This document shows positions 22,237 to 49,300 of a DNA stretch of 64,000 bases, one piece after another. Under the pieces are notes generated by a model. The model worked only from the letters and a program-made list of their open reading frames with translations, searched no databases and was not told the DNA's origin. Every line of letters begins with the position of its first letter. Position 1 is the first letter of the stretch. The DNA lies in assembly GCF_024223415.1 (NCBI RefSeq), contig NZ_CP100500.1, one strand, 5' to 3'. The translations under genes and the position numbers were made by a program. The DNA comes from Escherichia coli. GTDB taxonomy: Bacteria; Pseudomonadota; Gammaproteobacteria; Enterobacterales; Enterobacteriaceae.

Positions 22237-22249
22237 ATAAATGGGATAT
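22237..22249. repeat. attL core: left copy of the 13-bp direct repeat ATAAATGGGATAT (includes the native allE ATG)
   Basis: Matches ATAAAAGGGATAT at 33890-33902 in 12 of 13 positions; the allE start codon plus 2 codons are followed by foreign sequence. Confidence 0.6.
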
Positions 22250-22322
22250 ATCTATAACTTATTTTCAATAAGGTATTGATTTAATTAAACAACTTACACT
22301 ACAAAAAGTGCCAAAAATCGCA

Positions 22323-22347
22323 AATTAACTACACCATTAACTACACC
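22323..22347. repeat. Tandem AATTAACTACACC / ATTAACTACACC repeats, left arm (candidate integrase arm-type sites)
   Basis: The same 25-bp tandem is present at 33743-33767 next to int; flanking ~60 bp is also similar at both ends. Confidence 0.5.
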
Positions 22348-22639
22348 GTTCGGCGCACTGTATGAAACAACGTGGAACAAATAGGCACAAGAAATATAAA
22401 GGCGGGTAATTTTAAGGGGGCGTTGCTGTCGATACGGGGATCCACATATCGAGATTGATACCTGGCTTTTTTTCCGGTTAACCTTTAATCAGGCTGGTGG
22501 GCTTTACCTGTTCTGTAGGAGTGGTCATTATGACCATTCAGCCAATGACCTTAATCAGAATTTTTCGCTAAAAAATGACGTTGGCCACGTCATCCGGAAA
22601 GCACAAAATCACGTCGATTTTTAATGGATGGTTAAACCG

Positions 22640-23000
22640 TCTTTTTGTCACGGTGTGTCACTGGTTGTCACGCTCTGTCACGATGTCCGGCCTCCTCACA
22701 TTGAGGATTGTGGAAGAATCAATGGGTTAGTCTTACTACCCAAACTACGGGTAGTTTCCGTAGTTTCATGGTCGAGTTGCAGATCTGCAACTCCCCCATC
22801 AACCACAGGCGAATTTCCGCCTTCGGTCATTCCTTAATCATCTGCGTAATCATAATGATTATTCAGCCACCTCAATTTTGAGGTTTGCTTTAAGTTCAGC
22901 GAGTTACCGCGCCGACTTCCTCAAATTGAGGTTTCCGAAAATATCAGTGGGTTAGCGATTAAGCTGACCATTAATTAAACTGCGAAAATTTCGTAGTTTG
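22640..23000. promoter_or_regulatory. Repeat-dense non-coding region; candidate packaging (cos-like) or TerS-binding region
   Basis: Four TGTCAC copies at exact 10-bp spacing (22646-22681); 20-bp perfect palindrome GAGTTGCAGATCTGCAACTC (22774-22793); three CCTCA-N3/4-TGAGG inverted repeats; no convincing ORF. Confidence 0.35.
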
Positions 23001-23087
23001 TGACTGTCTTTCAGGCAGCTTGTTATCAGTCCTCAGATGTGAGGGATGTAGCCAGCGCAATTTTGCGTTATCGGGAATATCAGCAAG

Positions 23088-23369
23088 TTACCGCCGTAAC
23101 CGTTCCGGCTTCTTCCACTGATAAGTGTTTTTCGCGCTCTCCTGATACATCGCCACGCGTCGACGGTATGCCAGCAACTCTAGTACTCTGATTCGTATGT
23201 CGCGCATATCCACGCCGTTAAGCTCAATACCATCACGGCGCATTACATCAGCAACAACACGCACGTAATTTTCGGCGATCACGCTGTCCGGCTGCGTGGC
23301 CTGTTCGTCATGCTGCTGGCTGATTCCGGTAACGCGGCGGATTAATCCCAGTAGTTCGGCTTCTGTCAT
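23088..23369 (-). CDS. Hypothetical protein (island, distal to head module)
   Basis: 93-aa ORF; no recognisable domain; coding status uncertain. Confidence 0.3.
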   Translation of the reverse strand: MTEAELLGLIRRVTGISQQHDEQATQPDSVIAENYVRVVADVMRRDGIELNGVDMRDIRIRVLELLAYRRRVAMYQESAKNTYQWKKPERLRR

Positions 23370-23423
23370 TGTGCCCCCATCGCTCTGATAGTCTGGTGTC
23401 GTCGGGTCCTTCTGGAATTATGG

Positions 23424-23468
23424 CCCGTTACGGGGCGTCGACCTCGCGGTTTTTCGCTATTTATGAGC
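23424..23468. repeat. Inverted repeat, left copy (flanks the Nu1-like gene cassette)
   Basis: Its reverse complement matches 24169-24212 in about 42 of 44 positions, including a perfect 25-bp core CGCGAGGTCGACGCCCCGTAACGGG. Confidence 0.7.
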
Positions 23469-23661
23469 TTTTTTAGAGGGAGGTTGTTGTTTAATTGTTT
23501 GTCATATCCATTTGATAACTAAGTAAAAATAAAGAGCAATACAACAACCTGATAGTGTTTTTTTGATGCTAAAAATAAAAAAATACTAATTGAATCAAAT
23601 AGTTTTAAAAAAATACGTGGTTGTTGTATTGCGTATTTGATGGCGTAACAGAAAGTGATTT

Positions 23662-24102
23662 TTAACTTTGCTGTTCTGTAACGACTGATTGTTCCATGCT
23701 GGCACGGCGAACGCTTACGGCATGACGCCACCCAGCCAGAAAGCCAGCCATTTTATTTCGTGCCTTGCTCACATCTTCCGGTGAATAGCCGTAAATATGC
23801 AAACCTTCATCAAATCGCTGTTCTGTTTCTTCACTGAAATACTCGTCGCGCTCTGACGCAATCAACCTGGCAACCATAATCTTTTCCAGTGCGCTGGTTT
23901 CTCCGTGGTACTCAATAGCATCAAGATGGCTTTTACCCATGCACCAGAATAATGTGTGTCCGATGTGATAACCGCCGGACTTTCCGCGATCCGCATCAAG
24001 ATATGGCATGCCCTGTTTGGTCCATGCGCGAATAGTGGTTCTGTTGACCTTGAAATGTTCTGCTATTTCCTGCTGACTCACAAAACAAGCTTTATCAATC
24101 AT
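23662..24102 (-). CDS. Terminase small subunit, lambda Nu1-like (HTH DNA-packaging protein)
   Basis: 146-aa ORF; N-terminus VSQQEIAEHFKVNRTTIRAWTKQGMPYLDADRGKSGG parallels lambda Nu1 (..IRTIQNWQEQGMPVLRGGGKG..). Confidence 0.7.
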   Translation of the reverse strand: MIDKACFVSQQEIAEHFKVNRTTIRAWTKQGMPYLDADRGKSGGYHIGHTLFWCMGKSHLDAIEYHGETSALEKIMVARLIASERDEYFSEETEQRFDEGLHIYGYSPEDVSKARNKMAGFLAGWRHAVSVRRASMEQSVVTEQQS

Positions 24103-24168
24103 AATGTTACCTTAATCATGCGATTAAATGTTAATCAAGTGGTGGTGGTGTCACCTTCACGGAAAAAC

Positions 24169-24212
24169 GTCATAAATAGCGAAAACGCGCGAGGTCGACG
24201 CCCCGTAACGGG
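24169..24212. repeat. Inverted repeat, right copy (flanks the Nu1-like gene cassette)
   Basis: Partner of 23424-23468 in inverted orientation; the two enclose ~700 bp containing only the Nu1-like gene and an AT-rich tract. Confidence 0.7.
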
Positions 24213-24233
24213 TCCACATGCCGGAAAGGACCC

Positions 24234-24258
24234 GCAAAAAAAGCCGGATTTCTCCGGC
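24234..24258 (-). terminator. Rho-independent terminator after orf137
   Basis: Minus-strand hairpin GCCGGAGAAATCCGGC followed by a T-run; nearly the same terminator recurs at 26509-26532. Confidence 0.5.
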
Positions 24259-24264
24259 CTTGTC

Positions 24265-24678
24265 TCAGATGGTTTTCAGTATGCGATCGATGTCGCCGTC
24301 ATCGCCCTGGTTTGTGCCATCGTATGCCATGCCAGCTGATACGGCTTTCGGGCTGTGCATGTCCATAAAGTTTTCAAAGGCTGAAGTAAGCTCTGGTGCA
24401 ACCTTCGGGCGTTCCTGCTCTATGGTCATGCTAAGGATGCTTTTAGCCGTACCAACATCGATACAAGGCACGTTAGCCATTGCACGTAACAGCGGCTGGT
24501 AGTCGTCAGATTCATGAAGCGCCATAATCGCATCAGCGCGCGGCTTGTCCTGTTCTTCCAGTTTGTTGAGTCGGTGTATGGCCTCGTAGGTTGATAAACC
24601 TCTGTCAGCCATTGCCCGCGCTTCGGCTTTAAATTTACTCGCCAGCGGTAGCTTCATGATACTTTCATTCGTTGCCAT
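24265..24678 (-). CDS. Hypothetical head-module protein (137 aa)
   Basis: ORF directly downstream of the D-like gene in the same operon; acidic C-terminus; no recognisable domain. Confidence 0.5.
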   Translation of the reverse strand: MATNESIMKLPLASKFKAEARAMADRGLSTYEAIHRLNKLEEQDKPRADAIMALHESDDYQPLLRAMANVPCIDVGTAKSILSMTIEQERPKVAPELTSAFENFMDMHSPKAVSAGMAYDGTNQGDDGDIDRILKTI

Positions 24679-24690
24679 CGTTCCCCCTGC

Positions 24691-25026
24691 TTATCGTGCC
24701 AGCGGCTGAACGGATACGCCGGAACCCGCAAAGGCGGCGCATTTTTTCGCATCGGTGTCGACGCTATCAGGCCAGTTAACGGCGGCAATATTGAATATCC
24801 CCGTTTTGTAACACTGTGCTGATTTCTGCTTTGACGTGTCCACGGGGTGCGAAGTCAGATAAACAGCTTTGCCAGATTCCTGACCATCCCACGCCTTAAA
24901 CTCGCCATTGTCTGCCAGCATCAGCGGGGTAAATTCCTGAATAACGCCAGCATCAGCGGCAAAATGTACCAGCGTCGTGGATACCTGCTGGCTGCCTGAA
25001 AATAACTCAATGTATGGAGCGTCCAT
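24691..25026 (-). CDS. Head decoration protein, lambda gpD-like
   Basis: 111-aa ORF with gpD-like motifs (TPLMLAD..AWDG..KTGIF..WP..AAFAGSG) and lambda D size. Confidence 0.75.
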   Translation of the reverse strand: MDAPYIELFSGSQQVSTTLVHFAADAGVIQEFTPLMLADNGEFKAWDGQESGKAVYLTSHPVDTSKQKSAQCYKTGIFNIAAVNWPDSVDTDAKKCAAFAGSGVSVQPLAR

Positions 25027-25037
25027 AGAATCCCCCG

Positions 25038-26093
25038 TTAAGCAATTTTGACGGTAACAAATTTGCGAATATCTGCCGGTACCGGCTGCGGTGCGCTGTG
25101 CGTCTGCACGTACTCAATCGCCGGATCGCCGTCCTCAATCCAGTTTTTCGGGTAGTACATGTTTTGCGTTGCGCCCGTTCTTACCGCTTCCTGATCCATA
25201 ATCGCACCATATGCCACCAGCCCTTTATTGTTGGTGTTACCCAGGACCAGCAAATCAGGCTCAAGGAAATATTTTTCGGTGCCGTCGCTGTCAGTGTATT
25301 TGCCGGAATAGACGATAAGGGCCAGATCACCAAGATAGCCTTTAAAGCTCACCACTTCGCCCAGGTTTTTACAGGCCAGCTCGGCGGCGGATTCTGACCC
25401 ACGGGAAAGATCGTACAGTTCACGGAATTTTTTAAAGCTGCGTAATGTGCGCCATACCTCACCGCCCATAATCATGACGTTGGCGGGGCAACCTGCCTGA
25501 TCAGCATAAAGCTCGATGTCATAGATTGGGTCGTGCATGTCTTTATCCTGCTGGGACCATTTTTTACCACTGGCCTGCTGTATGATGCAGTTTTCCGGTA
25601 TTTTCCAGTCGATTTCATAGCGTTCTATGCCTTCGCCCTCAATGATGTTTTTTCCGGTCGTTACCGCATTCACCGCCAGCCATTCAACACGCGCTTTAAT
25701 GGCGTTTACCTGGCGGCGCATGTTGCCAGTAATCAGGCGCATACGGCGATAGGTTGGGTCGTTAAGCTGTGCCGGATCTTCTCCAGCCATGCGCATGATG
25801 GTCTTTGTTGGATCGATTTCGTGCTTTGGCTTCATGTAGCCTGGTTTAATCGTGCTGGTTTCGTACCCTTTATCGCGCTGGACCTGACTACCCACCATAG
25901 GAGAACAGAACGCAGACATCGTAACCTCTTCAATGTCCAGGGTGTCCAGCATGATGTTTTGGGTGTTGAAGGTCGCCACGTTCGGGAAAAACAGCGTGGT
26001 AAACAGCGGACTAAATTTAAATTCCGAAATATCCCCGCGATTCAGGTACGCGAAAAGCTGGTTAGTTGTAAGTGCCGTTGCTTTGCCTGTCAT
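25038..26093 (-). CDS. Major capsid protein, lambda gpE family
   Basis: 351-aa ORF with many lambda gpE identities (PGYMKPKHE, DPTYRRMRLI, VVSFKGYLGDLALIVYSGKY, VLGNT, YPKNW..GDPA, SAP). Confidence 0.85.
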   Translation of the reverse strand: MTGKATALTTNQLFAYLNRGDISEFKFSPLFTTLFFPNVATFNTQNIMLDTLDIEEVTMSAFCSPMVGSQVQRDKGYETSTIKPGYMKPKHEIDPTKTIMRMAGEDPAQLNDPTYRRMRLITGNMRRQVNAIKARVEWLAVNAVTTGKNIIEGEGIERYEIDWKIPENCIIQQASGKKWSQQDKDMHDPIYDIELYADQAGCPANVMIMGGEVWRTLRSFKKFRELYDLSRGSESAAELACKNLGEVVSFKGYLGDLALIVYSGKYTDSDGTEKYFLEPDLLVLGNTNNKGLVAYGAIMDQEAVRTGATQNMYYPKNWIEDGDPAIEYVQTHSAPQPVPADIRKFVTVKIA

Positions 26094-26299
26094 TATTCAC
26101 CTCCGTGAACCTGATTGATACCCAGCGCCGCACGTAAATAGGTGCGCACCTGCCAGCCTGTTGACGGCTCAACCATCGCCAGCGGATCAAGTCCTGCCGC
26201 AATGCCTGCTTTTACATTCTGCTGGTGGCGTTCCTTGAGCGCCTCCACGATGTCGGGGCTTATGTAGACCGTCACCCCGCCTTTTTTCTCTTCTGCCAT
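26093..26299 (-). CDS. Hypothetical protein translationally coupled to the capsid gene (68 aa)
   Basis: ORF whose stop overlaps the capsid gene start; no recognisable domain. Confidence 0.45.
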   Translation of the reverse strand: MAEEKKGGVTVYISPDIVEALKERHQQNVKAGIAAGLDPLAMVEPSTGWQVRTYLRAALGINQVHGGE

Positions 26300-26508
26300 A
26301 GTCAGAAATTCCTCTTTGACTTAAAAAATCATAACTGGATGTTCATCCAGTCCTGATTATAATCATGATTGCATTTTGTGCAATAATGTTGAGTTGTGTT
26401 GCAAATTATGAAATGATTATCCCGATCATGTGTGTCAGTGCACCATAAAAAACCTCGTATACAAAAGCCCGATAAGCCCCCTGTGACCTTATCGGGCTTT
26501 TTTTAGGC

Positions 26509-26532
26509 GTAAAAAAGCCGGATTGCTCCGGC
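26509..26532 (-). terminator. Rho-independent terminator after the PerC-like gene
   Basis: Minus-strand hairpin GCCGGAGCAATCCGGC followed by a T-run. Confidence 0.5.
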
Positions 26533-26539
26533 TGTGTGC

Positions 26540-26812
26540 TCACTTCTGCGGGTAGTTGCGCCATATTGCTTTGCCAATACCAGCTATCCCCATTTGTTTT
26601 TCAGTGCGATTAACTGACCTTTTCAGAGCGCCTAAATCATCCGGCGGCTCCGGTGGCCTCTGTGCCTTCCGTGAACATTCCAGCCGTCGCATTGCCACCT
26701 GTGCGCGTTCCTTGTCTGTCTCCACCAGCATCATCACTTCACCCCATCGCGCGGCCGCCCTCCGGTAAAATCCTTTCGCCTCCAGTTCCTCCGCTATCCG
26801 GTCATGTACCAT
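26540..26812 (-). CDS. PerC-family transcriptional regulator-like protein
   Basis: ORF 26540..26932; likely start MVHDRIAEELEAKGFYRRAAARWGEVMMLV, resembling PerC-family proteins; assignment from memory of the family. Confidence 0.5.
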   Translation of the reverse strand: MVHDRIAEELEAKGFYRRAAARWGEVMMLVETDKERAQVAMRRLECSRKAQRPPEPPDDLGALKRSVNRTEKQMGIAGIGKAIWRNYPQK

Positions 26813-26822
26813 CGTCACCCCC

Positions 26823-27233
26823 TCAGAACGGAATATCATCACCGTAAGGGTCATCGCCTCCCGCTGGTGGCTGATTACCCTGTGTGCCTGTGGTTTTGCG
26901 TCTGTTCCCGCCAGGACGTGCCGCACGGGCACTGATTACGCTGTCTGCGATGACCTGCCAGCCCTGCCGCGTTTCGCCGTTCTGGCCTGTCCACTGGCTT
27001 ACCTGCATGTTACCCGCCACGCTCACCAGTTCGCCTTTGTGGTGTCTGGCCAGTGCGTCGGCCTGTCTGCCAAACGCCAGGACGGATAACCACATCGTCG
27101 CCGTTCCGTCATCTGCCTGGCTGCATGGCAGGGGAACCGCCATACTCGCCATCGCCATTTGTGTCCCTTTGCTGGTCTGTTTTGTCTGCGGGTCGTCCAC
27201 CAGCCGCCCGTAAGCCGCTATCTGTGCTGTCAT
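26823..27233 (-). CDS. Single-stranded DNA-binding protein (SSB)
   Basis: 136-aa ORF with OB-fold-like N-terminus, Gly/Pro-rich linker and the canonical acidic SSB tail ...GDDIPF. Confidence 0.8.
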   Translation of the reverse strand: MTAQIAAYGRLVDDPQTKQTSKGTQMAMASMAVPLPCSQADDGTATMWLSVLAFGRQADALARHHKGELVSVAGNMQVSQWTGQNGETRQGWQVIADSVISARAARPGGNRRKTTGTQGNQPPAGGDDPYGDDIPF

Positions 27234-27487
27234 GCTGTCTGCTCTCCGGTTTTAACATTGATGGTTGTCACCTGTTCCGCTCCGGCAATCTCCCGCTCTG
27301 TCAGCGTGGCAAAGTTTGCCGCCGTCGTTGTCATGAATGCGCTTATCAGTTCGGGATGTGCTTTCGCGTATCCTTCCCCCGTGTTGCGGTCGATGATTTT
27401 TATCGCCACCCTCAGCCAGTGCTCTGTAAGGTCAATGGCGCGGTTATGTGATTTCTTCTGATTGTTAAATTTTTCTGATGTGTGCAT
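27230..27487 (-). CDS. Hypothetical protein (85 aa) upstream of ssb
   Basis: ORF overlapping the ssb start by 4 nt; no recognisable domain. Confidence 0.45.
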   Translation of the reverse strand: MHTSEKFNNQKKSHNRAIDLTEHWLRVAIKIIDRNTGEGYAKAHPELISAFMTTTAANFATLTEREIAGAEQVTTINVKTGEQTA

Positions 27488-27529
27488 TTTTATTTTTACC
27501 CCCTCGTTTAAAAAGTTTTGAGTTGTGGT

Positions 27530-27770
27530 GCACCTCCTCTACCTCTCTACACAATCATCTTTCAGGTCAGTAATGGCGCGGCTTTCAGCGGGGTAGAGGG
27601 CTTTTTTGGCCCTCTACCCGCCATCTACCACCCCCTCACAAATGCCCTGAATTATGGTAGAGGGTGTAGAGGGCTTTTAAGTACCTTCTACCTGCCATCC
27701 ACCCAATCTATCCACATGAAATATATGTAATTATTTTCTTAAGGTAGAAGGGGTAGAGGGCTTTTGTCTA
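27530..27770. repeat. Iteron array; candidate replication origin of the island
   Basis: At least six copies or variants of GGTAGAGGG(C)TTTT and its complement CCCTCTACC in about 240 bp of non-coding DNA directly 3' of the primase gene. Confidence 0.6.
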
Positions 27771-27773
27771 AAA

Positions 27774-29522
27774 CTATAAAAACGCGTCGCAGTCGTCTGT
27801 TGTTGTCACGTTGGTTTGCGTAAACCCTTTAATCCTGCGCGTTATATATTCATGACCGTAAACTTTCGCCGCTGGCTTCATGGCCTTGCTGAACTCAGCC
27901 ACGTTCAGCGGTTTGCTCCTGCCTGCATACGCCATAAACGCCAGATAGACGCGGTAAAGGCTGTTTCTGGTCGTGTACTTCACTGAATCGCCACCGCCGC
28001 CCATCATCAGGCCACGTGCTTCCTCCAGAAAATTCAGGAACTGGCAAAACTCAATAACCGGATCCGTCTGTTGCTTTATTGCCAGAGCTTCATCACCGTC
28101 TCGCTGTTCAATGAGTAAAGCCCGTGCCTTTTCAGGGTCGGCAAAGTTCGCCAGCAAGCGGCGGATAATGACAGGGATTTCAGCCGCGATCTTTTCCGGT
28201 AGCTCCCTGTCTTTTTCTGCCTCGCTTACGATGTTATCGAACCGGAATATCACCCGACGACGTGACACGCCTCCTGCCCGTTCGGTGAATATCATCGGGT
28301 TATTATTGGTTGCCAGCACAACCGCCCTGATTACCGCCGTGAATCGCTTTTCATATTTCGGGTTGATTTCCACGGGGTCGCCGCCCGTGATTTTCTTGAT
28401 GCCCGTTCCTTCGCCTGTATATTTCGGCTGGTCTGCCAGGACAATAAGCCTACTCCCGACAACCTGCGCACGCCCACCAGCATCATCAAGCGATGTCATC
28501 TCAGCGCTTACCGTGTTCTGTTTCCCTGCCAGAAGGCTGGCTATGTGTGTGAATGTACTTTTACCGCTCCCGCCGTCTCCGGTGGCCTCAATAAACATCT
28601 GCCAGTCGTACCGGTTCGCCATAATCATGTACAGCGCGGCACATATACGCATCATCTTGCGCGGGTCTTTTCCGGCAGCGTGATCAAGCCATTTATGAAA
28701 GTTTGGCGCGTTGTCGCGGATATTCTCACCTGGTACTGGCGGCGTGTACTCAATGCCGTTGTGTGTGGTGATCCAGTTCTCCGGCGTGTGCGGGGAAAAT
28801 TCCCCCGTTTTCAGGTCAAGCGCACCATTGGCGAACGGCAGCAAATCGCCGGACGGCTCGCCCATTGGTTCGGCAATAACTTTTAACGCTTCCACGGCGT
28901 TACTGATTACGCGCTTGCTGAAAGTGGCCCTGTGCTCTGAATAGATCGCCACCATTTCGCGGCTCAGTTCCATTGTGCTGACCGGACACCATACCCCGCC
29001 GCGCCATACGTGAACGATTTCACTTTCCAGATGCACACAAACGCCATCAAATCGACCAGCAAGCATCTGTGCGCGCTCACTGTCTGCCATTTGTGCCAGT
29101 TGCGTATTTTTCTGCTCCGGCATGGTAAGCCCTGCGGCAATATTTTCACGCTCAGCATTCAGATAGCGCCGCCAGTTTTCACACTTCTGACCGTGCATTC
29201 CTTCAGAGTAAAAATTCGCATCCTGAATATCTGCCGCCGCCAGCTTCTGACCAATCTTTTTGGTCTCCACTAAATCCAGTTCTCCGGCCTGGTACAGCCT
29301 TACGCGTTTTTTTCCATCCGGAACAATTTTCAGCGCATCAAGTTCAGCAAGCTGATTTGGCCCAAGCCACACAGGCGGCACATTATCGCCGGATGCGGGA
29401 CCGTCCTTCTCCTGCCACTGTTGTGCATGCGACCAGGCATCACTACCCGCAAAGATAATTACCTCTGTGTCTTTGTGTTTTATTCCGCGTGGCTGTTTTT
29501 TTACGTTCGGTGCCAGTTTCAT
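27774..29522 (-). CDS. Phage/plasmid primase-helicase (P4 alpha family; D5_N plus P-loop NTPase)
   Basis: 582-aa ORF; Walker A GDGGSGKST; architecture and size typical of satellite or PICI Pri-Rep proteins. Confidence 0.85.
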   Translation of the reverse strand: MKLAPNVKKQPRGIKHKDTEVIIFAGSDAWSHAQQWQEKDGPASGDNVPPVWLGPNQLAELDALKIVPDGKKRVRLYQAGELDLVETKKIGQKLAAADIQDANFYSEGMHGQKCENWRRYLNAERENIAAGLTMPEQKNTQLAQMADSERAQMLAGRFDGVCVHLESEIVHVWRGGVWCPVSTMELSREMVAIYSEHRATFSKRVISNAVEALKVIAEPMGEPSGDLLPFANGALDLKTGEFSPHTPENWITTHNGIEYTPPVPGENIRDNAPNFHKWLDHAAGKDPRKMMRICAALYMIMANRYDWQMFIEATGDGGSGKSTFTHIASLLAGKQNTVSAEMTSLDDAGGRAQVVGSRLIVLADQPKYTGEGTGIKKITGGDPVEINPKYEKRFTAVIRAVVLATNNNPMIFTERAGGVSRRRVIFRFDNIVSEAEKDRELPEKIAAEIPVIIRRLLANFADPEKARALLIEQRDGDEALAIKQQTDPVIEFCQFLNFLEEARGLMMGGGGDSVKYTTRNSLYRVYLAFMAYAGRSKPLNVAEFSKAMKPAAKVYGHEYITRRIKGFTQTNVTTTDDCDAFL

Positions 29523-29818
29523 TTTTTACCCCTGAATACGTTAAGCATCTTTTTTATTTCCTGAATATTGGCGCGTGCTTTCTCCCTGCTGGTTGGTTTA
29601 CTGCGGGGCGCTGCCTGTACCAGAGAAAAATCACGCCGGAACTGATAAACAGGCATCACGCAATCATATTCGTAGCCTTCACGGCGGTAAGTGATGCGCC
29701 GTTCCTCCACGCCTTTAATCGTTACCGTGCCGCCGTACTGGTCGCGGTAAATATCGCCGTTCATAAATTCAGGCCGAGCGGGGCCGCTGGCATTAACGCC
29801 AGTATTTTTCATTCCCAT
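29519..29818 (-). CDS. Hypothetical protein (99 aa), translationally coupled to primase
   Basis: Stop overlaps the primase start by 4 nt; basic protein of unknown function. Confidence 0.5.
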   Translation of the reverse strand: MGMKNTGVNASGPARPEFMNGDIYRDQYGGTVTIKGVEERRITYRREGYEYDCVMPVYQFRRDFSLVQAAPRSKPTSREKARANIQEIKKMLNVFRGKK

Positions 29819-29822
29819 ATAA

Positions 29823-30065
29823 TTAAATTCCGTTTGTGTGGTGTTTTAATTCGTCAATTTTTTCTAATGCTTTGTTTATCTTGCTGGTGGAAATATCCAG
29901 CAATTCAGAAATAGCAAATATAAGTCTTGCCGTTGATTCATCTCTTTCGTTGTTTGACAGCAATTGAAACCACACGTTTGTAATTTCAATTGCCGAATTA
30001 TTATAGGTTATTGCACTGTTCATGTATTCCGACACCTCTGCAAGCGAAAGTTTATTATTCTCCAT
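29823..30065 (-). CDS. Hypothetical protein (80 aa), AT-rich accessory gene
   Basis: Locally AT-rich ORF within the minus-strand operon. Confidence 0.4.
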   Translation of the reverse strand: MENNKLSLAEVSEYMNSAITYNNSAIEITNVWFQLLSNNERDESTARLIFAISELLDISTSKINKALEKIDELKHHTNGI

Positions 30066-30246
30066 AACGTTCTACCCTCTCATCAATTAACCACAGTGCA
30101 ACACTTCCTGACAGTCTTGCCAGAAGGCCAGCTAATGCGGATATATCATCATCATTTAATTTATTAGGGTACGCTTCAAGAAGTCTGCAAATAATTTCGG
30201 TTTGGTGGGCGCGTTCAGCGGCTTCGTGTAATGTAATTTCCTTCAT
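30055..30246 (-). CDS. Hypothetical protein (63 aa)
   Basis: ORF overlapping its neighbours by a few nt (operon). Confidence 0.4.
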   Translation of the reverse strand: MKEITLHEAAERAHQTEIICRLLEAYPNKLNDDDISALAGLLARLSGSVALWLIDERVERYGE

Positions 30247-30431
30247 TAATGCACCTCTTTTAATTCATACACTGCTGAAATAATGACTTGTGATAAGCCA
30301 TATTCTGATGATTCGCTTCTCACCGCAGCAATAGCCGTCTGAACATTAACAGCCTTCACATTCTGAGCGATACCAATTGTGTGGCCTAGTGGGTTAACAG
30401 CTCGGGCAAATACACGGAAGGTTTTAAGCAT
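30246..30431 (-). CDS. Hypothetical protein (61 aa)
   Basis: ORF overlapping its neighbours (operon). Confidence 0.4.
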   Translation of the reverse strand: MLKTFRVFARAVNPLGHTIGIAQNVKAVNVQTAIAAVRSESSEYGLSQVIISAVYELKEVH

Positions 30432-30789
30432 GGCGCACCCCCTGAATAACCTGATATCCGCAACTGGTCAGCAATTCGATAAATTCCGGCAGAGTGCCAA
30501 AACAGCAATCAGTGCGTAGCTGTTCGCAGGATACCTCAACGCCGTTTTCGTAATGGCTCACTATGCGCCCGGTAAAATGCGGATCATCATCGTGATGGCA
30601 CGTTGACGGTTTCATCAGCCGCGCGCGTTCCGCCAGTTCCAGCAATGCTTCAACGCTTCCGGCAATTGCACCATCCGGCAGGTGATAATTACTTACTACG
30701 CGTCCATTCTCTACATTGACCAGTAGCTGTCCGGTAAATTTCTCACGAAACTGAACGCGGTTAAGATCGGTAAGTGACAGGTTAATCAT
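30424..30789 (-). CDS. Hypothetical Cys/His-containing protein (about 122 aa)
   Basis: ORF track 30424..30831; ATG at 30789 overlaps the upstream gene stop (ATGATTAA); contains CHHDDDPH...C..CC, a possible metal site. Confidence 0.45.
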   Translation of the reverse strand: MINLSLTDLNRVQFREKFTGQLLVNVENGRVVSNYHLPDGAIAGSVEALLELAERARLMKPSTCHHDDDPHFTGRIVSHYENGVEVSCEQLRTDCCFGTLPEFIELLTSCGYQVIQGVRHA

Positions 30790-30979
30790 GGCACACCTCC
30801 TGACGAATACGGGCGGCGAATACAGCGACACAACCGGACGGGCAACGGTTACGCGCTTCGCGTTCTGTCCAGGCGGTCACGTGGATAATTTGAGATTCTC
30901 CGGCACTCAGTGCCAGAAAACGCCACACAAAGGCGGTTTGTGTGTGCGCAAGGCGTGGGGTATGCTGTGTTCCAGCCAT
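30782..30979 (-). CDS. Small protein resembling P4 Icd-like / Ash-family (host cell-division inhibitor-like)
   Basis: 65-aa ORF MAGTQHTPRLAHTQTAFVWRFLALSAGESQIIHVTAWTEREARNRC...; SD GAGGT 7 nt upstream; first gene of the leftward operon; family assignment tentative. Confidence 0.4.
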   Translation of the reverse strand: MAGTQHTPRLAHTQTAFVWRFLALSAGESQIIHVTAWTEREARNRCPSGCVAVFAARIRQEVCHD

Positions 30980-31069
30980 AATCGTTACCTCAATTAATGG
31001 TTTGGTTAGAAGCCCGTTGGTGTTCATAGCGCCAGCGGGCTTTGTCTTTTCATCGATTACCTCAATAAA

Positions 31070-31151
31070 GGTGTCAGCCACTATACTAGTAACAGGTGTC
31101 AGCCACGTCAATAGTGTTTTTCCATTTTCTTGTGTGTATACTGTCAGCCAC
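31070..31151. promoter_or_regulatory. Three direct repeats of (G)GTGTCAGCCAC in the divergent promoter region (candidate operators)
   Basis: Copies at about 31070-31081, 31095-31106 and 31141-31151, between the leftward icd-like operon and the rightward RHH gene; a TATACT -10-like hexamer abuts copy 3. Confidence 0.5.
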
Positions 31152-31172
31152 CTAATAACAAGGAAATCAGAT

Positions 31173-31352
31173 ATGGCAACGAAAGCAGTTAATGGAAAAT
31201 CCAAAAAACTTGAGGCACGAGTCCCCCATGCAATAGCTGACGCTTTAGAAAATTTAAAGGAAGAAGGCGAAAGCACTGGGCAATTTATCGTTTCGGCACT
31301 TGAAGGCGAGATCAAACGCCGCCAGCGCCGGAAGGCCAAAGAATCAGAATAA
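31173..31352 (+). CDS. Small RHH/Arc-like DNA-binding protein; candidate island repressor
   Basis: 59-aa ORF MATKAVNGKSKKLEARVPHAIADALENLKEEGESTGQFIVSALEGEIKRRQ...; SD AAGGA; transcribed divergently from the replication operon. Confidence 0.55.
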   Translation: MATKAVNGKSKKLEARVPHAIADALENLKEEGESTGQFIVSALEGEIKRRQRRKAKESE

Positions 31353-31400
31353 TCACTATCAGCGCCGTGGTGTGAGGTACTGCGGCGCATTGTTTTAAAG

Positions 31401-31601
31401 GTGATAATTATGAATAACCAAGAACTACAAAATAAAGCATTATCAATTATCATGCGCCAGCGTGAGAAAACCCGCAGGGAAATAAATAAGGCATTAACCC
31501 GCACTGAAAATCTTAAAGTTCCTGATAAGTTCGCCCTTGATCCTTTTGTCGAGAAATACCCTCGGCGCTTAAAAGCAAACAAAAACCGCCCACCTGGCTG
31601 A
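31401..31601 (+). CDS. Hypothetical protein (66 aa) downstream of the RHH gene
   Basis: Short ORF on the same strand as the RHH gene, before a plus-strand terminator. Confidence 0.3.
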   Translation: MIIMNNQELQNKALSIIMRQREKTRREINKALTRTENLKVPDKFALDPFVEKYPRRLKANKNRPPG

Positions 31602-31758
31602 CAATCCACCAGCAAGCCAGGACACTGATCACATTGGCCACCGTGACAGGTGGCCTTTTCTTTGCCCGTTATCCGGCAATTGTGGCGCTTCGCCACACGG
31701 TTGATATAATCCCACTGCTCATATTCATTTTTTGCGCAGTAGGTTAATTGTTCAGAAA

Positions 31759-31787
31759 GGCGGCTCCTTATCGGGGCCGCTTTTTTT
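31759..31787 (+). terminator. Rho-independent terminator ending the rightward RHH transcription unit
   Basis: Hairpin GGCGGCTCC-TTATC-GGGGCCGC followed by TTTTTTT. Confidence 0.45.
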
Positions 31788-31928
31788 ATGTCTGAAAAAC
31801 CGCGATTTTGTTGTTTTTCAGTTTCACAAGGCCGAACGAAGCCCCGCCCCTGTTCGGGCGTATATCCAGTCTTCATGGTTAAATCTCTGTATTAGTGGAT
31901 GGGTGGCGGCTGTGTGCCGCCAGTCTTT

Positions 31929-32117
31929 TTAGTGAACTGCCTCGCAGCTTTCCTTCCATGCCAGAACTTCGGATAAAGACCAGCCAACGGAACGACCGCC
32001 CAGCTTACGCCGTGATGGGAATTGTCCGGCCTTTTCCAGGCGGTAGCGGCATGAGCGGCTAAGCCCTGTTAGCTTTTCGCATTCTTTTTCACGTATAAAC
32101 CGATCAGTGCTTAACAC
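31929..32117 (-). CDS. alpA: AlpA-family phage regulatory protein (excisionase/activator-like)
   Basis: 62-aa ORF ...KLTGLSRSCRYRLEKAGQFPSRRKLGGRSVGWSLSEVLAWKES, the AlpA HTH signature; adjacent to int. Confidence 0.8.
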   Translation of the reverse strand: MLSTDRFIREKECEKLTGLSRSCRYRLEKAGQFPSRRKLGGRSVGWSLSEVLAWKESCEAVH

Positions 32118-32409
32118 TATTGCCCCCTTTCGTTTCTTAAAGAGTTATTTCGTGTTCTATTGCGTTGGTATGTGTCTGATTGTGTCAGGGTGATTCAGAG
32201 TTGGCAAATGTTGGTGGCGGGTATTTTACAGAAACGGGGTTATTTTAATAAAAAACATTTTAATTCAGTATTATGCAAAGGCATAAAATCTCGTTTTATG
32301 CCTTTTTTCTCACTATTTAAAGCGTTATTCGCTAATGTATAAAAAACCAGTTGAGCATTAAAAATCAGCAACTTATAAATCTGTATACTTTTTGGCCTCT
32401 TGTTCGTGG

Positions 32410-32443
32410 TTGTTTCACGTTGTTGCGTATTGTTTCACGTTGT
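32410..32443. repeat. Two direct repeats TTGTTTCACGTTGT between int and alpA
   Basis: Identical 14-mers at about 32410-32423 and 32430-32443 in the int-alpA intergenic region. Confidence 0.4.
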
Positions 32444-32491
32444 ATCTGTGCACTTATCCAGTATGCGCATACTGAAAAAACACGAAAAAAA

Positions 32492-33742
32492 TTATTTTCT
32501 TCTGGTTACTGGTAGCGTGGTTACGTTTTCATGTGCTCCCGCCAGTATCTCCAACCGCTCCACCCACATATCCAGCGCATTGCGTTTCGCATCCAGATAA
32601 CGGGAATGATTATAAACTCGCTGCATTCCTGGCATCTGGTGGCCTGTAAGCTGCTCCACGACGTGAGGATCCACGCCTAAATCGTTCAGCATCGTTGTAA
32701 AGGTGCGCCGGATGTCATGCAGTGACCAGTGAGGGTGTTTAAGCCTCCTGTGCGCTAATCTTCCATACTGCGATACGCTGGCCTCCTGTTTCACTTCCCC
32801 CAGCAATAAGCCCGTGTGCCTGTTCTGCTCCACCAGCTGCGTGACGAACGGCAGTATCGCTTCCGGTATGGGCCGGAATATGGCTACCTTCGTTTTGCTG
32901 TGCTCCTTCGGAACGGTCCATAGCATTTCGGTAAAATCCCACTCCCCGATCTCCGATAGCCTCAGTTCTACTGTCCTGGCTCCGAAGACAATCAGGAGGC
33001 GGATTAGTGCGACGTAGTAAGGGGAAAATATTTTTTTGTCCAGTGCCTGCAATAATTCGCCAAGTTCTTTGTTACTTAAGACACGCTGACTTATATCCGG
33101 TTTTTTCCCAACGTCAGCAACACTCATATCATCAAGAACGTTGCTGATTGCATAGCGCCGCTTCCGGCAGAACTTAAGCGCCTGTTTGCATGTCTGTAGC
33201 AGGAATCCGGCGGAAACAGGGGCTTGCTTTGCCACCCGATCAAAACAGGCCAGCCAGTGCCGTAGCTCGCATTTATCCAGCGGCATAGCACCAATCTGCT
33301 GTATTACGTGATTATTAAGTCGCCTTTTCAGGGCGATATAATCCACGCGGTTTTCCTTTACGTAATACTCAAGCCAGTAGGTAAGCGCATCGCCAACCGT
33401 TACAGGCTTTAACGCTTCCTGTACGGTGTAATTCATCTCATGACGTGGATTTTTCCCCTCAGCCAGCCATGCGCGGCACTGTGCGGCTTTTTCCCTGGCT
33501 GCTTTCAGGCTCAGATCAGGATAATTTCCCAGCTTAATCCGTTCCGGTCGTGCTCCCCTTCCCGTTCCGGCCCTGTAGGTGAAATACCAGGTTAAAAGGC
33601 CGCTGGTTGAATGCCTGACGGTCAGGTTTCCACCGTCATTAAGAAAGACTGTTTTTTGGGCGGGTGTGCCGTTGATTTTCCTTAGCTGTGTATCGCTCAG
33701 TTTGTTAAGTGCTCTGCGCATAATTTTGATTCCGGTCATCAC
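32492..33742 (-). CDS. int: Tyrosine recombinase/integrase (P4-like, DUF4102 N-terminus)
   Basis: 416-aa ORF; N-terminus ...LNDGGNLTVRHSTSG...WYFTYR; C-terminal catalytic region HDIRRTFTT...VYNHSRY; lies at the island edge next to attR. Confidence 0.9.
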   Translation of the reverse strand: MMTGIKIMRRALNKLSDTQLRKINGTPAQKTVFLNDGGNLTVRHSTSGLLTWYFTYRAGTGRGARPERIKLGNYPDLSLKAAREKAAQCRAWLAEGKNPRHEMNYTVQEALKPVTVGDALTYWLEYYVKENRVDYIALKRRLNNHVIQQIGAMPLDKCELRHWLACFDRVAKQAPVSAGFLLQTCKQALKFCRKRRYAISNVLDDMSVADVGKKPDISQRVLSNKELGELLQALDKKIFSPYYVALIRLLIVFGARTVELRLSEIGEWDFTEMLWTVPKEHSKTKVAIFRPIPEAILPFVTQLVEQNRHTGLLLGEVKQEASVSQYGRLAHRRLKHPHWSLHDIRRTFTTMLNDLGVDPHVVEQLTGHQMPGMQRVYNHSRYLDAKRNALDMWVERLEILAGAHENVTTLPVTRRK

Positions 33743-33767
33743 AATTAACTACACCATTAACTACACC
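33743..33767. repeat. Tandem AATTAACTACACC / ATTAACTACACC repeats, right arm (candidate arm-type sites)
   Basis: Identical to 22323-22347; located immediately upstream of the int start. Confidence 0.5.
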
Positions 33768-33889
33768 GATCGTTGCACAAAGGGCTACAACGTGAAACAA
33801 GCTGGAACAAGAAAAATCACAAATTTGTTTATAATCAAAAACATAATGCACAACCTGAAACATTATGAAACGGCAAAAAACACTAATTG

Positions 33890-33902
33890 ATAAAAGGGAT
33901 AT
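33890..33902. repeat. attR core: right copy of the 13-bp direct repeat (ATAAAAGGGATAT)
   Basis: 12 of 13 match to attL; a TAA stop and AAG replace the native ATG start of allE. Confidence 0.6.
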
Positions 33903-34679
33903 TTAAATAACGTCACCGGTTACCGCGATGATTTACTGGCTAACCGTGCGATTGTGAAACACGGTAATTTCGCACTGTTAACACCAGACGGTCTGGTAAA
34001 AAATATTATTCCGGGCTTTGAAAATTGTGACGCGACAATCCTCTCCACGCCAAAGCTGGGTGCCTCTTTTGTTGATTATCTGGTCACACTGCATCAAAAC
34101 GGTGGCAACCAACAGGGCTTCGGTGGCGAAGGCATTGAAACGTTCCTGTATGTGATCTCTGGAAATATCACTGCCAAAGCCGAAGGCAAAACATTTGCCT
34201 TAAGCGAAGGTGGCTATCTTTATTGCCCGCCAGGCTCCTTAATGACGTTTGTTAACGCCCAGGCCGAAGACAGCCAAATCTTTTTATATAAGCGCCGCTA
34301 TGTTCCGGTAGAAGGCCATGCACCGTGGCTGGTTTCTGGCAATGCCAGCGAACTGGAACGCATTCACTATGAAGGTATGGATGATGTGATCCTGCTGGAT
34401 TTTCTGCCCAAAGAGTTAGGTTTTGATATGAACATGCATATCCTCTCTTTTGCACCAGGTGCCAGCCATGGTTATATCGAAACACACGTTCAGGAACACG
34501 GTGCCTATATTCTTTCCGGTCAGGGGGTTTATAACCTCGACAATAACTGGATCCCGGTGAAAAAAGGCGATTACATCTTTATGGGCGCTTATTCTTTACA
34601 GGCTGGTTATGGCGTAGGGCGTGGTGAAGCGTTCAGCTATATTTACTCGAAAGATTGCAACCGCGACGTAGAGATTTAA
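33897..34679 (+). pseudogene. allE: Ureidoglycine aminohydrolase gene truncated at its start codon by island insertion
   Basis: Reading frame GYLNNVTGYRDDLLANRAIVKHGNFALL... resumes at 33897 with no ATG; an in-frame TAA lies 2 codons upstream; first in-frame start is GTG at 33954. Confidence 0.8.
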
Positions 34680-49039: not shown

Positions 49040-49300
49040 TTAGGGAAAAATAAGAAAAAAATAATCATCTTCTACATTTGTGTATATTGATATATCCACC
49101 GCTACGTGCGGAAAAAAATCTGGGAGCCATGTAAAAACTCCATCATTTTCTGGTATTGCCATATAGTTTATGTAATGTTTACTTACAAGAGATTCATCTT
49201 TGTATAAATAAAGATAAGTAATTACGCATAAAACAACAATGATTATAATAGCAAAAATAAATATTATCATCTTTGATAGATTACTTGAGATAGCCAGCAT
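49040..49300 (-). CDS. Small membrane protein; candidate Rhs immunity protein
   Basis: 86-aa ORF with one strong TM helix, AT-rich, directly downstream of and overlapping the rhs 3' end. Confidence 0.4.

Follow-up and report, generated by a model that had tools for sequence, protein, structure and literature searches.

EcCICFT073 of Escherichia coli CFT073 is the prototype Gram-negative PICI (Fillol-Salom et al. 2018, 2019), and its mobilisation has been shown experimentally, whereas the island described here is known from sequence alone. Members of the EcCICFT073 family combine Rpp or TerS with helper heads. This contrasts with cf-PICIs (e.g., EcCIEDL933), which make their own small capsids and leave the helper unblocked; they share with our island the int-alpA-pri type of backbone and a coat lineage of their own, apart from phage coats, but also encode a portal, a protease, head-tail connectors, HNH and the two terminase subunits. 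CpmB of SaPI1 is a satellite scaffold with the C-terminal coat-binding end of the helper scaffold, and resembles orf137 of the island in concept. SaPIbov5 Ccm is, as in our island, a satellite coat homolog without the remaining head module (PMC6893505). Both Ccm and CpmB have been shown to redirect capsid size, whereas neither a size change nor a phenotype has been found for the EcCICFT073 homologs. P4-like satellites have only the P4-family primase in common with the island.

Among phages, the Nu3-D-E genes of lambda, phage 21 and Gifsy-1 are comparable to the island module with regard to the PF03864 coat, the PF02924 decoration protein and the C-terminal end of gpC/Nu3. The identities to the lambdoid phage proteins are only 42–48% for the coat and 36–42% for decoration, and the module differs from lambdoid heads in its reversed order, in a free-standing scaffold of 137 aa without protease fusion, and in the lack of portal, protease, W, FI and FII.

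An EcCICFT073-Type PICI at the 5′ End of allE

The window, i.e., the whole stretch of 64,000 nucleotides that was analyzed, contains the island at the 5′ end of the E. coli gene allE, with the following borders and repeats:

22250..33902, minus strand: whole island, EcCICFT073-type PICI, 11,653 bp counting one core copy
22243..22249, no strand: attL crossover core GGGATAT, from comparison with the island-free site
33896..33902, no strand: attR crossover core GGGATAT, from the same comparison
22323..22348, no strand: left copy of an internal 26-bp repeat, AATTAACTACACCATTAACTACACCG (direct repeat family D1)
33743..33768, no strand: integrase-proximal copy of the 26-bp repeat (direct repeat search)

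Island-free E. coli genomes lack the island at allC/allE, and comparison with them showed that the insertion was precise, with a short duplicated core; at the island-free site, the left flank matches to ~22258 and the right one resumes at ~33890. The start codon of allE (ATG, 22241–22243) was left on the attL side of the insertion, while the body of the gene adjoins attR, where the ATG is replaced by AAG. The 26-bp repeat lies inside the inserted DNA and is probably an arm-type binding site of the integrase and not the crossover point.

By megablast, the island matched positions 1377756–1389175 of CFT073 with 88.9% DNA identity, 78% coverage and identical gene order from int to orf93. EcCICFT073 also carries the same arm sequence beside int. 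It differs in being inserted between phoQ and roxA, in its crossover core (ATATGTCC versus GGGATAT) and in the short early ORFs that separate alpA from pri. Among 5,426 complete E. coli genomes, the best match to the island reached 82% coverage at 90.5%, and the exact mosaic was present in none.

The backbone and accessory genes were assigned as follows:

32492..33742, minus strand: tyrosine integrase (phrog_1, E 3.6e-73), 94% identical to the EcCICFT073 integrase
31929..32117, minus strand: AlpA regulator/excisionase (phrog_2790, E 1.3e-17), 95% identical to CFT073 AlpA
27774..29522, minus strand: P4-family primase/replicase, pri-rep (phrog_864, E 1.3e-165), 89% identical to the CFT073 protein
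27590..27765, no strand: iterons (GGGGTAGAGGGCTTTT, three copies; repeat families D2 and D4) downstream of pri, putative replication origin
26823..27233, minus strand: single-stranded DNA-binding protein, SSB (TIGR00621, 57.6 bits versus a cut-off of 53.95; phrog_44), 85% identical to its CFT073 counterpart
26540..26812, minus strand: PerC-family transcription activator-like gene (phrog_994 and ‘transcriptional activator’ PHROGs from residue 41)
23088..23369, minus strand: orf93, conserved island gene (phrog_1561, E 6.5e-55), 78.5% identical to its CFT073 counterpart

The score of pri-rep with TIGR01613 (107.8 bits) fell just below the cut-off of 108.7. The position of the iterons is that of the EcCICFT073 ori, which sits downstream of pri (PMC10111431). 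The start of the PerC-like gene was set at Met41 of the listed ORF, and its CFT073 counterpart carries a PerC family annotation.

All five core PICI components of de Sousa et al., which include ‘Capsid morphogenesis’, were present in the island. We also found the features of a classical Gram-negative PICI, namely int with a specific att site, AlpA beside int, and pri with an adjacent origin, followed downstream of ori by capsid-morphogenesis and terS/rpp genes. All long genes lie on the minus strand in one transcription direction, and tail and lysis genes are absent from the 11,653 bp, a size within the ~10–15 kb of such islands. The island is unremarkable within a well-studied family of E. 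coli satellites, and we consider it very probable (roughly 85%) that the region under study is the packaging/morphogenesis end of a classical EcCICFT073-type PICI with a satellite-specific head-shell operon.

As a separate observation, no evidence contradicting the PICI identity of the island was encountered.

The Head-Shell Operon: Coat, Decoration and a Putative Miniature Scaffold

The morphogenesis and packaging end comprises the following features:

26300..26540, minus strand: conserved region upstream of the capsid operon, putatively regulatory (read from sequence)
26093..26299, minus strand: orf68, small conserved protein (phrog_3255, E 8.7e-36), 93% identical to its CFT073 counterpart
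25038..26093, minus strand: major capsid protein of the lambda gpE family, c1499 homolog, 351 aa (PF03864 Phage_cap_E, E 1.2e-50)
24691..25026, minus strand: head decoration protein of the gpD/SHP family, c1500 homolog, 111 aa (PF02924 HDPD, E 2.7e-17; phrog_49)
24265..24678, minus strand: orf137, c1501 homolog, predicted miniature Nu3-like scaffold protein (PHROG, tblastn and hhalign)
24237..24263, minus strand: hairpin and T-run directly 3′ of orf137 (read from sequence; repeat D3)
24192..24203, minus strand: cos1, cosN-like GGGCGTCGACCT within ACGGGGCGTCGACCTCGCG, with the rpp start codon 90 nt downstream
23662..24102, minus strand: rpp, RppA-type ‘redirecting phage packaging’ protein, 146 aa (PDB 6HLK RppC, E 1.7e-32)
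23433..23444, plus strand: cos2, second cosN-like GGGCGTCGACCT, inverted relative to cos1

The five minus-strand ORFs of this list, which the first-pass annotation had reported as intact, were all confirmed at these coordinates. Their positions also bear out the inverted gene order proposed there, since E-D-(orf137)-cos-rpp reverses the lambda order Nu1...Nu3-D-E, with transcription still running in one direction.

The profile matches to PF03864 and PF02924, together with the homology to lambda, upheld the initial E-like and D-like assignments. The coat protein matched PF03864 over its full length (model positions 14–328 of 329), had 42.9% identity with lambda gpE across 343 aa (gpE structure 7VI9, E 1.3e-81) and was 95.4% identical to the c1499 protein of CFT073. 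It aligned from residues 1–351 to 1–351 (E 3.5e-230, 766 bits) with the solved structure PDB 3BQW, a 351-aa ‘putative capsid protein of prophage’ that we take to come from CFT073. Because this match is near-identical and full-length, the fold of the satellite coat protein has already been solved experimentally. 3BQW had been deposited as a prophage protein without a functional study, and has served as a reference for the lambda E family and as a molecular-replacement model. The decoration protein, with 93.7% identity to the CFT073 protein and 35.5% to lambda gpD over 76 aa, matched the structures 1TD0 (‘Head decoration protein’, presumably SHP of phage 21; E 1e-12) and 1C5E (lambda gpD; E 4e-9).

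The initial description centred on a satellite that encodes lambda-type coat and decoration proteins itself but no portal, protease or large terminase, and the PHROG scans and tblastn were in agreement with it. The PHROG scan of 19 island ORFs, every long one included, revealed no portal, protease or large-terminase family and no head-tail adaptor or connector family, nor any annotation corresponding to the hijacking genes Sid, Psu, Delta or Epsilon. When lambda Nu1, A, W, B, C, Nu3, D, E, FI and FII were searched against the whole window by tblastn, only D and E gave matches.

The description as a capsid-plus-decoration-only module did not hold, as orf137 proved to be related to scaffold proteins. 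orf137 is 93% identical to c1501 of CFT073 (137 aa) and consists of two helical repeats followed by the FExFMxxHSPxAV tail found at the C-terminus of lambdoid gpC/Nu3. It matched the C-terminal positions 495–568 of 583 in phrog_53 (E 5e-8) and, by tblastn, the far C-terminal end of gpC/Nu3 from phage PhiR12_2_star (36% identity, E 2e-4); it was 32.5% identical to an Edwardsiella prophage gpC over 80 aa (E 6.6e-6), and hhalign aligned it to the gpC/Nu3 scaffold with a probability of 97.5% (E 7e-12). The homology spans the last scaffold repeat and the C-terminal tail, with no S49 protease domain, and on inspection residues 1–45 resemble a further, degenerate repeat unit. The AlphaFold model was helical with a flexible C-terminal part, and searches against Pfam, PDB and fold databases returned no match and no solved relatives. 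By these comparisons, we identify orf137 as a miniature homolog of the lambdoid gpC/Nu3 C-terminal end, an assignment that is new here. With orf137 being scaffold-related, the module consists of coat, decoration and scaffold.

The orf68 stop and the capsid-gene start codons overlap. Those homologs of orf68 that were found came from enterobacterial PICI-like contexts only; its AlphaFold model comprised two helices, for which a fold search gave no match. The upstream region, almost invariant across five islands, contains two hairpin/T-run terminators, a perfect −10 box (TATAAT, 26361–26356) and a perfect inverted repeat (ACTGGAT-GAAC-ATCCAGT, 26349–26332), the latter followed by a T-run just ahead of the orf68 ribosome-binding site. 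At the other end, the hairpin and T-run behind orf137 mark the likely end of the capsid operon, and published primers place the same hairpin 3′ of c1501 in CFT073.

Rpp and the cos Sites

The gene following the operon had been labelled a Nu1-like small terminase. The N-terminal helix-turn-helix is indeed Nu1-like, with 35% identity to lambda Nu1 over 40 aa in BLASTP and a match to phrog_57 over residues 7–46 only, but the protein is an Rpp protein. Residues 2–125 aligned with RppC (6HLK), the identity to the 144-aa RppA of CFT073 (c1503) was 88.9%, and the protein showed homology to RppA/B/C in both sequence and fold (winged helix-turn-helix and helical dimerisation domain), with cos1 directly upstream. 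Its length lies within the 139–154 aa span of Rpp proteins (PMC9026076). Residues R21, T22, R25, K29, L51 and F121 are conserved; R21-T22 serve in cos recognition, L51 in TerS binding and F121 in dimerisation (PMC6739421). A full-length lambda Nu1-type small terminase was considered and rejected, the Pfam Phage_Nu1 match being limited to positions 3–32 of 164 (E 0.056).

RppA and RppC bind the helper small terminase and retarget it to the island cos (PMC6739421). Redirection of the helper terminase to the island, as proposed for the Nu1 homolog, corresponds to this published mechanism, and the RppA identity and the 6HLK match suggest that the present protein would act likewise. As in EcCICFT073, rpp is flanked by two inverted cosN-like sites. 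The location of cos1 agrees with that of EcCICFT073 cos1 as set by the delta-cos.1 primers, and cos2 has one mismatch to lambda cosN and is alignable with cos1 over ~72 nt. Of the two sites present in EcCICFT073, cos1 alone is essential there.

Distribution and Evolution of the Module

The module had been considered unusual. This view was not sustained: of 29 reference Gram-negative PICIs, 21 carry a capsid gene (PMC10111431), capsid morphogenesis is a core PICI component, and we detected the four-gene module in 597 of the 5,426 complete E. coli genomes, in 594 of them at full length. Its attachment sites differ, and its partners vary, with either Rpp or a 180-aa TerS and either Pri or RepA.

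All four module genes were intact in seven of seven alleles examined, with median dN/dS values of 0.11 (E), 0.11 (D), 0.25 (orf68) and 0.30 (orf137). They are under purifying selection, a result that is new here. Also new is the finding that the island capsid proteins form their own clade, apart from phage capsid proteins (200/200 bootstrap support). PICI capsid proteins share 62–99% identity, the Edwardsiella island included (64% between the Edwardsiella and Escherichia lineage), compared with only 42–48% between PICI and phage capsids; the closest phage capsid among 50,697 phage records was 47.5% identical. The orf68-E-D-orf137 operon is an old, satellite-specific head-shell kit of coat, decoration and predicted miniature Nu3-like scaffold.

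Predicted Transfer of the Island and Possible Roles of the Module

By analogy with the close homolog EcCICFT073, for which this route has been shown, a lambdoid cos helper phage would activate alpA, after which the island would be excised by Int and replicated by Pri, ori and SSB. RppA would then bind the helper small terminase, and the hybrid would no longer recognise the phage cosB, but island cos1 instead, so that island concatemers could be packaged into helper heads. Arithmetically, four island units amount to 46.6 kb, which a lambda-sized head would hold.

In EcCICFT073, deletion of c1499 or c1500 left both transfer by the native helper and lambda interference unchanged, and the DNA that had been packaged was of phage size; the capsid-less c1499::cat island reached transfer titres of 10^5–10^6 per ml with CFT073 phage 4 and phage 80 as helpers, compared with ~10^3 per ml with lambda (PMC6092414). 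The capsid and decoration genes of this family have been described already and solved structurally, and transfer has been shown to proceed without them. By the same analogy, the operon orf68-E-D-orf137 is presumably not required for laboratory transfer by lambda-like helpers. No particle proteomics of such islands was found in the accessible literature.

With regard to what the module does, we tentatively favor, at somewhat less than even odds, that its proteins together with the helper portal and protease may build expanded shells filled with DNA, from island coat alone or together with helper coat, and thereby confer a conditional advantage. This is suggested because a decoration protein under strong purifying selection is useful only on a mature capsid lattice. 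If so, the gain would be conditional, e.g., more heads or a wider usable helper range. The neutral c1499 and c1500 deletions, the transfer of c1499::cat, the single clones without inhibition and the missing PICI-sized band were counted against this reading.

It had also been proposed that the E homolog builds smaller shells. Island coat and mini-scaffold would co-assemble with, or replace, the helper coat to give small heads of one unit, in the manner of SaPIbov5 Ccm or SaPI1 CpmB. According to Dearborn and coworkers in 2017, CpmB reportedly competes with the helper scaffold via a common C-terminal part, and orf137 has the C-terminal part of a helper-type scaffold. Other satellites with a capsid homolog redirect size, namely SaPIbov5 with Ccm and possibly PmCI172 (PMC6893505, PMC6092414). 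Moreover, all lambda-lysogen strains with the island in the strain table of PMC6092414 carry cat in place of the capsid gene, so that the published size test with lambda apparently lacked an intact module, and a second marked island was enlarged by its cassette. However, packaged DNA had phage size, induction of CFT073 with a tetA-marked island and intact capsid genes gave no PICI-monomer band, later papers from the same laboratory place EcCICFT073-type islands in large capsids, and deletion of either c1499 (95% identical) or c1500 neither relieved interference nor altered transfer. Dispensability of E without an effect on size or transfer, which the proposal itself had set against smaller shells, is thus already on record for EcCICFT073 (PMC6092414), and we regard size redirection as unlikely.

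Similarly improbable is that coat and mini-scaffold serve as defence cargo and not in transfer, acting as dominant-negative decoys that poison lambdoid head assembly. Interference with phage assembly is common in PICIs, the module is conserved though dispensable for transfer, and a truncated homolog of the scaffold could be a competitor at coat-binding sites. Yet, none of the single cloned EcCICFT073 genes except c1503 inhibited lambda, with similar results for phage 80 (PMC6739421), and the deletions described above did not alter lambda interference. A PADLOC defence-system search of orf68 and orf93, the two module-region proteins tested, gave no match to either, and a decoy needs no co-conserved decoration protein, whereas D shows a dN/dS as low as that of E.

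The missing deletion phenotype in EcCICFT073 and the absence of portal, protease and large terminase would also be compatible with functionless leftovers of a complete head module from a cf-PICI or prophage ancestor. This is very improbable in view of the intact ORFs, the 594 full-length modules, the dN/dS values of E and D, the almost invariant upstream region and a capsid lineage common to Escherichia and Edwardsiella islands and distinct from phage capsids. Finally, the lambda-family E and D genes and the cos sites might recall a defective lambdoid prophage remnant and not a satellite, a reading effectively refuted by the PICI backbone (int, alpA, pri-ori and rpp) on 11.65 kb in one direction without tail, lysis or immunity genes, by the near-identity to an experimentally mobilised satellite, and by the position of the island capsid protein outside the phage clade.

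Identity, boundaries and insertion site of the island

By gene content and order, we assigned the region to the packaging and morphogenesis part of a phage-inducible chromosomal island (PICI) of the known EcCICFT073 family, and not to a new kind of element. The flanks were 99.4–99.9% identical to many strains, which identifies the window as E. coli chromosome, and the locus order was arcC-ylbF-ylbE-fdrA-allD-allC, insertion, allE-glxK. When compared with an island-free E. coli genome (L014), the inserted DNA extended from 22250 to 33895, with an insert size of 11,653 bp, and the same comparison defined the duplicated core:

22243–22249 and 33896–33902: GGGATAT, duplicated core

The genes of the island, on the minus strand, were arranged in the order int, alpA, several small ORFs, a P4-family primase gene, iterons, ssb, a PerC-like gene, the orf68-E-D-orf137 operon, a cosN-like site, a gene for a 146-aa protein, a second, inverted cosN-like site and orf93. 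A megablast search of 5,426 complete E. coli genomes aligned it with the island at CFT073 1377756–1389175 (78% coverage, 88.9% identity, identical gene order), which is EcCICFT073, the prototype Gram-negative PICI. Protein identities to EcCICFT073 were 94% (Int), 95% (AlpA), 89% (Pri), 93% (orf68), 95% (E), 94% (D), 93% (orf137) and 89% (146-aa protein), and all five core PICI components of de Sousa et al. were present, i.e., integrase, AlpA, primase-replicase, capsid morphogenesis and a terS-type packaging gene. Although the integrases of both islands are 94% identical, their crossover cores and chromosomal sites differ.

Direct repeats of 26 bp (22323 and 33743) were considered as island ends and rejected, since they are internal with respect to the island-free genome, whose comparison puts the true junctions at 22250 and 33895. 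This exact repeat, part of 75 bp at 79% identity (22323–22397 and 33743–33817) inside both island ends, is itself a tandem of ATTAACTACACC; the same sequence adjoins int in EcCICFT073, and its probable role is that of an arm-type site for the integrase. The insertion cut off allE from its own start codon, the ATG being left at the left junction (22241–22249). At the right junction (33890–33960), the allE ATG reads AAG and is preceded by two in-frame stop codons, and no in-frame start follows until a GTG 20 codons into the gene (33954). The strain probably has an inactive or shortened version of the gene, which codes for (S)-ureidoglycine aminohydrolase. An Rfam scan found no non-coding RNA in the island, and around 740 bp at its left end (22350–23087) had no convincing ORF, PHROG match or Rfam match; this stretch holds a cluster of GTGACA repeats around 22640–22680.

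The capsid operon and its leader

The five ORFs named in the first-pass annotation were all present on the minus strand, at the following positions together with the leader of the operon:

26300–26540, minus strand: leader with two terminators, a perfect -10 TATAAT and three TTGCA/TGCAA motifs
26300–26540, minus strand: also in the leader, downstream of the putative promoter and immediately ahead of the orf68 ribosome-binding site, a perfect inverted repeat with a trailing T-run
26093–26299, minus strand: orf68
25038–26093, minus strand: E-like coat gene, 351 aa; Pfam Phage_cap_E over the full model (E 1.2e-50), 42.9% identity to lambda gpE over 343 aa
24691–25026, minus strand: D-like decoration gene, 111 aa; Pfam HDPD (E 2.7e-17), 35.5% identity to gpD over 76 aa
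24265–24678, minus strand: orf137
23662–24102, minus strand: rpp, 146 aa, with a Nu1-like N-terminus; match to the RppC structure 6HLK (E 1.7e-32)

As that annotation had also claimed, gene order was the reverse of the lambda order Nu1...Nu3-D-E, and portal, protease and large terminase were missing from the island. Ten lambda head and packaging proteins compared with the whole window by tblastn matched only D and E, and PHROG scans of 19 island ORFs, every long one included, yielded no portal, protease or large-terminase family.

The E protein matched over its full length the 'putative capsid protein of prophage' of PDB 3BQW (351 aa, E 3.5e-230), a structure that has already served as a lambda-E family reference. 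No record among 50,697 phage genomes exceeded 47.5% identity to the island coat. Island coats from Escherichia and Edwardsiella were 62–99% identical to each other and 42–48% identical to phage coats, including the coat of the prophage that hosts the Edwardsiella island. A small neighbour-joining tree of 9 island and 5 phage sequences recovered the split between both groups in 200 of 200 bootstraps. The island coat protein accordingly belongs to a satellite-specific lineage apart from phage capsids.

All four module ORFs were intact in seven alleles, with median dN/dS values of 0.11 (E), 0.11 (D), 0.25 (orf68) and 0.30 (orf137), and we regard all four genes as being under purifying selection. 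For orf68, Pfam gave nothing meaningful (only BrnA_antitoxin, E 0.36), NCBIfam and PADLOC gave no match, and a structural model (pLDDT 76) had no fold match in the PDB. A ribbon-helix-helix assignment, for which the basis would be a strand-helix-helix pattern and that same BrnA hit, is not claimed here. The leader was almost invariant among five islands and has the PerC-like activator gene directly upstream; its conservation suggests regulated expression of the capsid operon, and the inverted repeat with its T-run may serve as an operator or as a target of antitermination.

orf137 as a scaffold-related protein

We annotate orf137 (c1501 in EcCICFT073) as a scaffold-related protein, a putative mini-Nu3, and the module would therefore comprise coat, decoration protein and mini-scaffold. 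This assignment is based solely on sequence and profile homology. The protein matched the lambdoid head protease/scaffold PHROG over 75 C-terminal positions of the profile (E 5e-8), its sole phage tblastn match was the extreme C-terminus of gpC/Nu3 from PhiR12_2_star (36% identity, E 2e-4), and it aligned with the gpC C-terminus of the Edwardsiella prophage (32.5% over 80 aa, E 6.6e-6). A word-indexed protein search retrieved close relatives only; two Nu3-like proteins came in addition from an exhaustive search of representatives. When its profile was aligned with that of Nu3 C-termini by hhalign, the probability was 97.5%, a value that is partly circular because the target contained those two proteins; independent support comes from the PhiR12_2_star, Edwardsiella-prophage and phrog_53 matches. 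Common to orf137 and Nu3 C-termini are a last 'IMAL...A..IL' repeat and a 'FExFMxxHSPxAV' tail. No Pfam match was obtained, and a PDB sequence search and Foldseek of the model were both empty. Our literature search found no paper naming both PICIs and Nu3, which does not prove the link unreported.

Rpp and the cos sites

The protein that had been described as a 'Nu1-like small terminase' does carry a Nu1-like N-terminal helix-turn-helix, but it resembles Nu1 only there, and we identify it by homology as an Rpp ('redirecting phage packaging') protein. Its identity to RppA, the 144-residue product of c1503, is 88.9%, and it keeps R21, T22, L51 and F121, whose mutation in RppA abolishes cos1 recognition, TerS binding or dimerisation (PMC6739421). 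Rpp binds the helper small terminase, the specificity of which is thereby switched from the phage cosB to the island cos1 (PMC6739421); the earlier proposal that this protein redirects helper terminase to the island was thus right, and already published. The rpp gene is flanked by a cosN-like GGGCGTCGACCT 90 nt upstream and by a second, inverted copy downstream, the same rpp/cos layout as in EcCICFT073.

By analogy with a close homolog, for which these steps have been demonstrated, a helper phage would activate alpA, the island would excise and replicate, Rpp would capture the helper TerS, and island concatemers would be packaged from cos1 into helper heads. Arithmetically, a lambda head can accommodate four island units (46.6 kb, 96% of the lambda genome), while three (35.0 kb, 72%) fall under the lower limit for lambda packaging of about 78% of the genome.

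Distribution and arrangements of the module

The first-pass annotation had considered a capsid-plus-decoration module unusual, a view that our survey did not bear out. The 2-kb four-gene module was found in 597 of the 5,426 complete E. coli genomes (around 11%), including O157:H7, ATCC 25922 and CFT073, at full length in 594 and with 90–99% identity, and it is modular. In TUM1886, a 99%-identical module stands beside an annotated small terminase of 180 aa and a RepA helicase, which replace Rpp and Pri; in other islands it is combined with other attachment sites, and some module-bearing islands sit within prophages. Of 29 reference Gram-negative PICIs, 21 carry a major capsid gene, which transfer does not require (2023 paper, PMC10111431).

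Two further loci carry such islands. In Edwardsiella tarda (GCA_053360915.1; L010, 1–16213), a PICI with int, alpA, primase, orf70, coat and decoration genes, in which no orf137 or rpp gene was called, lies directly upstream of the truncated portal gene of a lambda-like prophage, followed by the prophage's own protease, D, E, FI and FII; it is a helper-embedded satellite. In E. coli CFIAFB20180511 (L005, 7400–17700), an island of the same family with 82% module identity is embedded in a prophage, between FI/head-tail-joining genes and P2-like tail genes, and its orf137 variant is shorter (115 aa) and devoid of the FENFM motif.

Published phenotype and possible role of the module

The element, its capsid and decoration genes, the coat crystal structure and the Rpp packaging trick have all been published already; among the additions made here is the annotation of orf137/c1501 as a putative mini-Nu3 scaffold. 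Fillol-Salom et al. 2018 (PMC6092414) described c1499 as a putative capsid protein and c1500 as a head decoration protein, with lengths of 351, 111 and 137 aa for c1499, c1500 and c1501 in a supplementary table. Deletion of c1499 or c1500 left lambda interference and island transfer unchanged, and packaged DNA was reported to be phage-sized (PMC6092414). Capsid remodelling by the island E protein, as previously proposed, has thus been tested on a 95%-identical homolog, c1499, with no phenotype (PMC6092414).

For lambda and phage-80 lysogens, the strain table lists solely c1499::cat versions of the island, and therefore the 'phage-sized DNA' test with lambda was apparently run without the island capsid gene. 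Disruption of c1501 by tetA in the published deletion background was considered and rejected, as the primers put the cassette directly after the c1501 stop codon; according to the primer table, the tetA-marked island has an intact module and is enlarged.

In the most likely reading, to which we give a probability of roughly 35–40%, the module proteins would form, or join, real mature shells on a helper-supplied portal and protease. We favor it because a decoration protein binds to expanded lattices only, and this one shows the same degree of conservation as the coat, which also argues against a pure decoy or a relic. Redirection of capsid size by the module and anti-phage poisoning by it are both weaker explanations, and its decay is disfavored, given that the selection data speak against it. 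A more specific proposal, which we consider rather unlikely, is that the intact operon is a working shell-building kit that, under other helpers or conditions, makes its own or mosaic heads with only portal and protease from the helper, possibly small one-unit heads. It is compatible with the published negatives because the lambda and phage-80 work used an island with a cat-replaced capsid gene and the other marked island was enlarged by tetA. If it were true, EcCICFT073-type islands would stand midway from classical to capsid-forming PICIs (cf-PICIs).

What calls for explanation is why about 11% of complete E. coli genomes retain, under purifying selection, an intact coat-decoration-scaffold set of a lineage distinct from all phage capsids and without known phenotype. 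If the proteins of this set do take part in building or altering heads, a continuum would run from classical PICIs to cf-PICIs, and capsids built by satellites would be much commoner than thought. The orf137 annotation and the caveat on the marked islands offer concrete starting points for an experiment on the role of the module.

Other elements in the window

Immediately adjacent to tRNA-Arg(tct), at 685–1613, is an integrase ORF listed at 278 aa (phrog_1, E 1.8e-67), and a further integrated element seems to extend past the left edge of the window. Between 48000 and 53500, composition shifts sharply, from a GC content of 0.42 at 48–50 kb to 0.63–0.64 at 50–53 kb; the change lies over an ORF of 1,164 aa (49281–52775), and the region may be Rhs-like.
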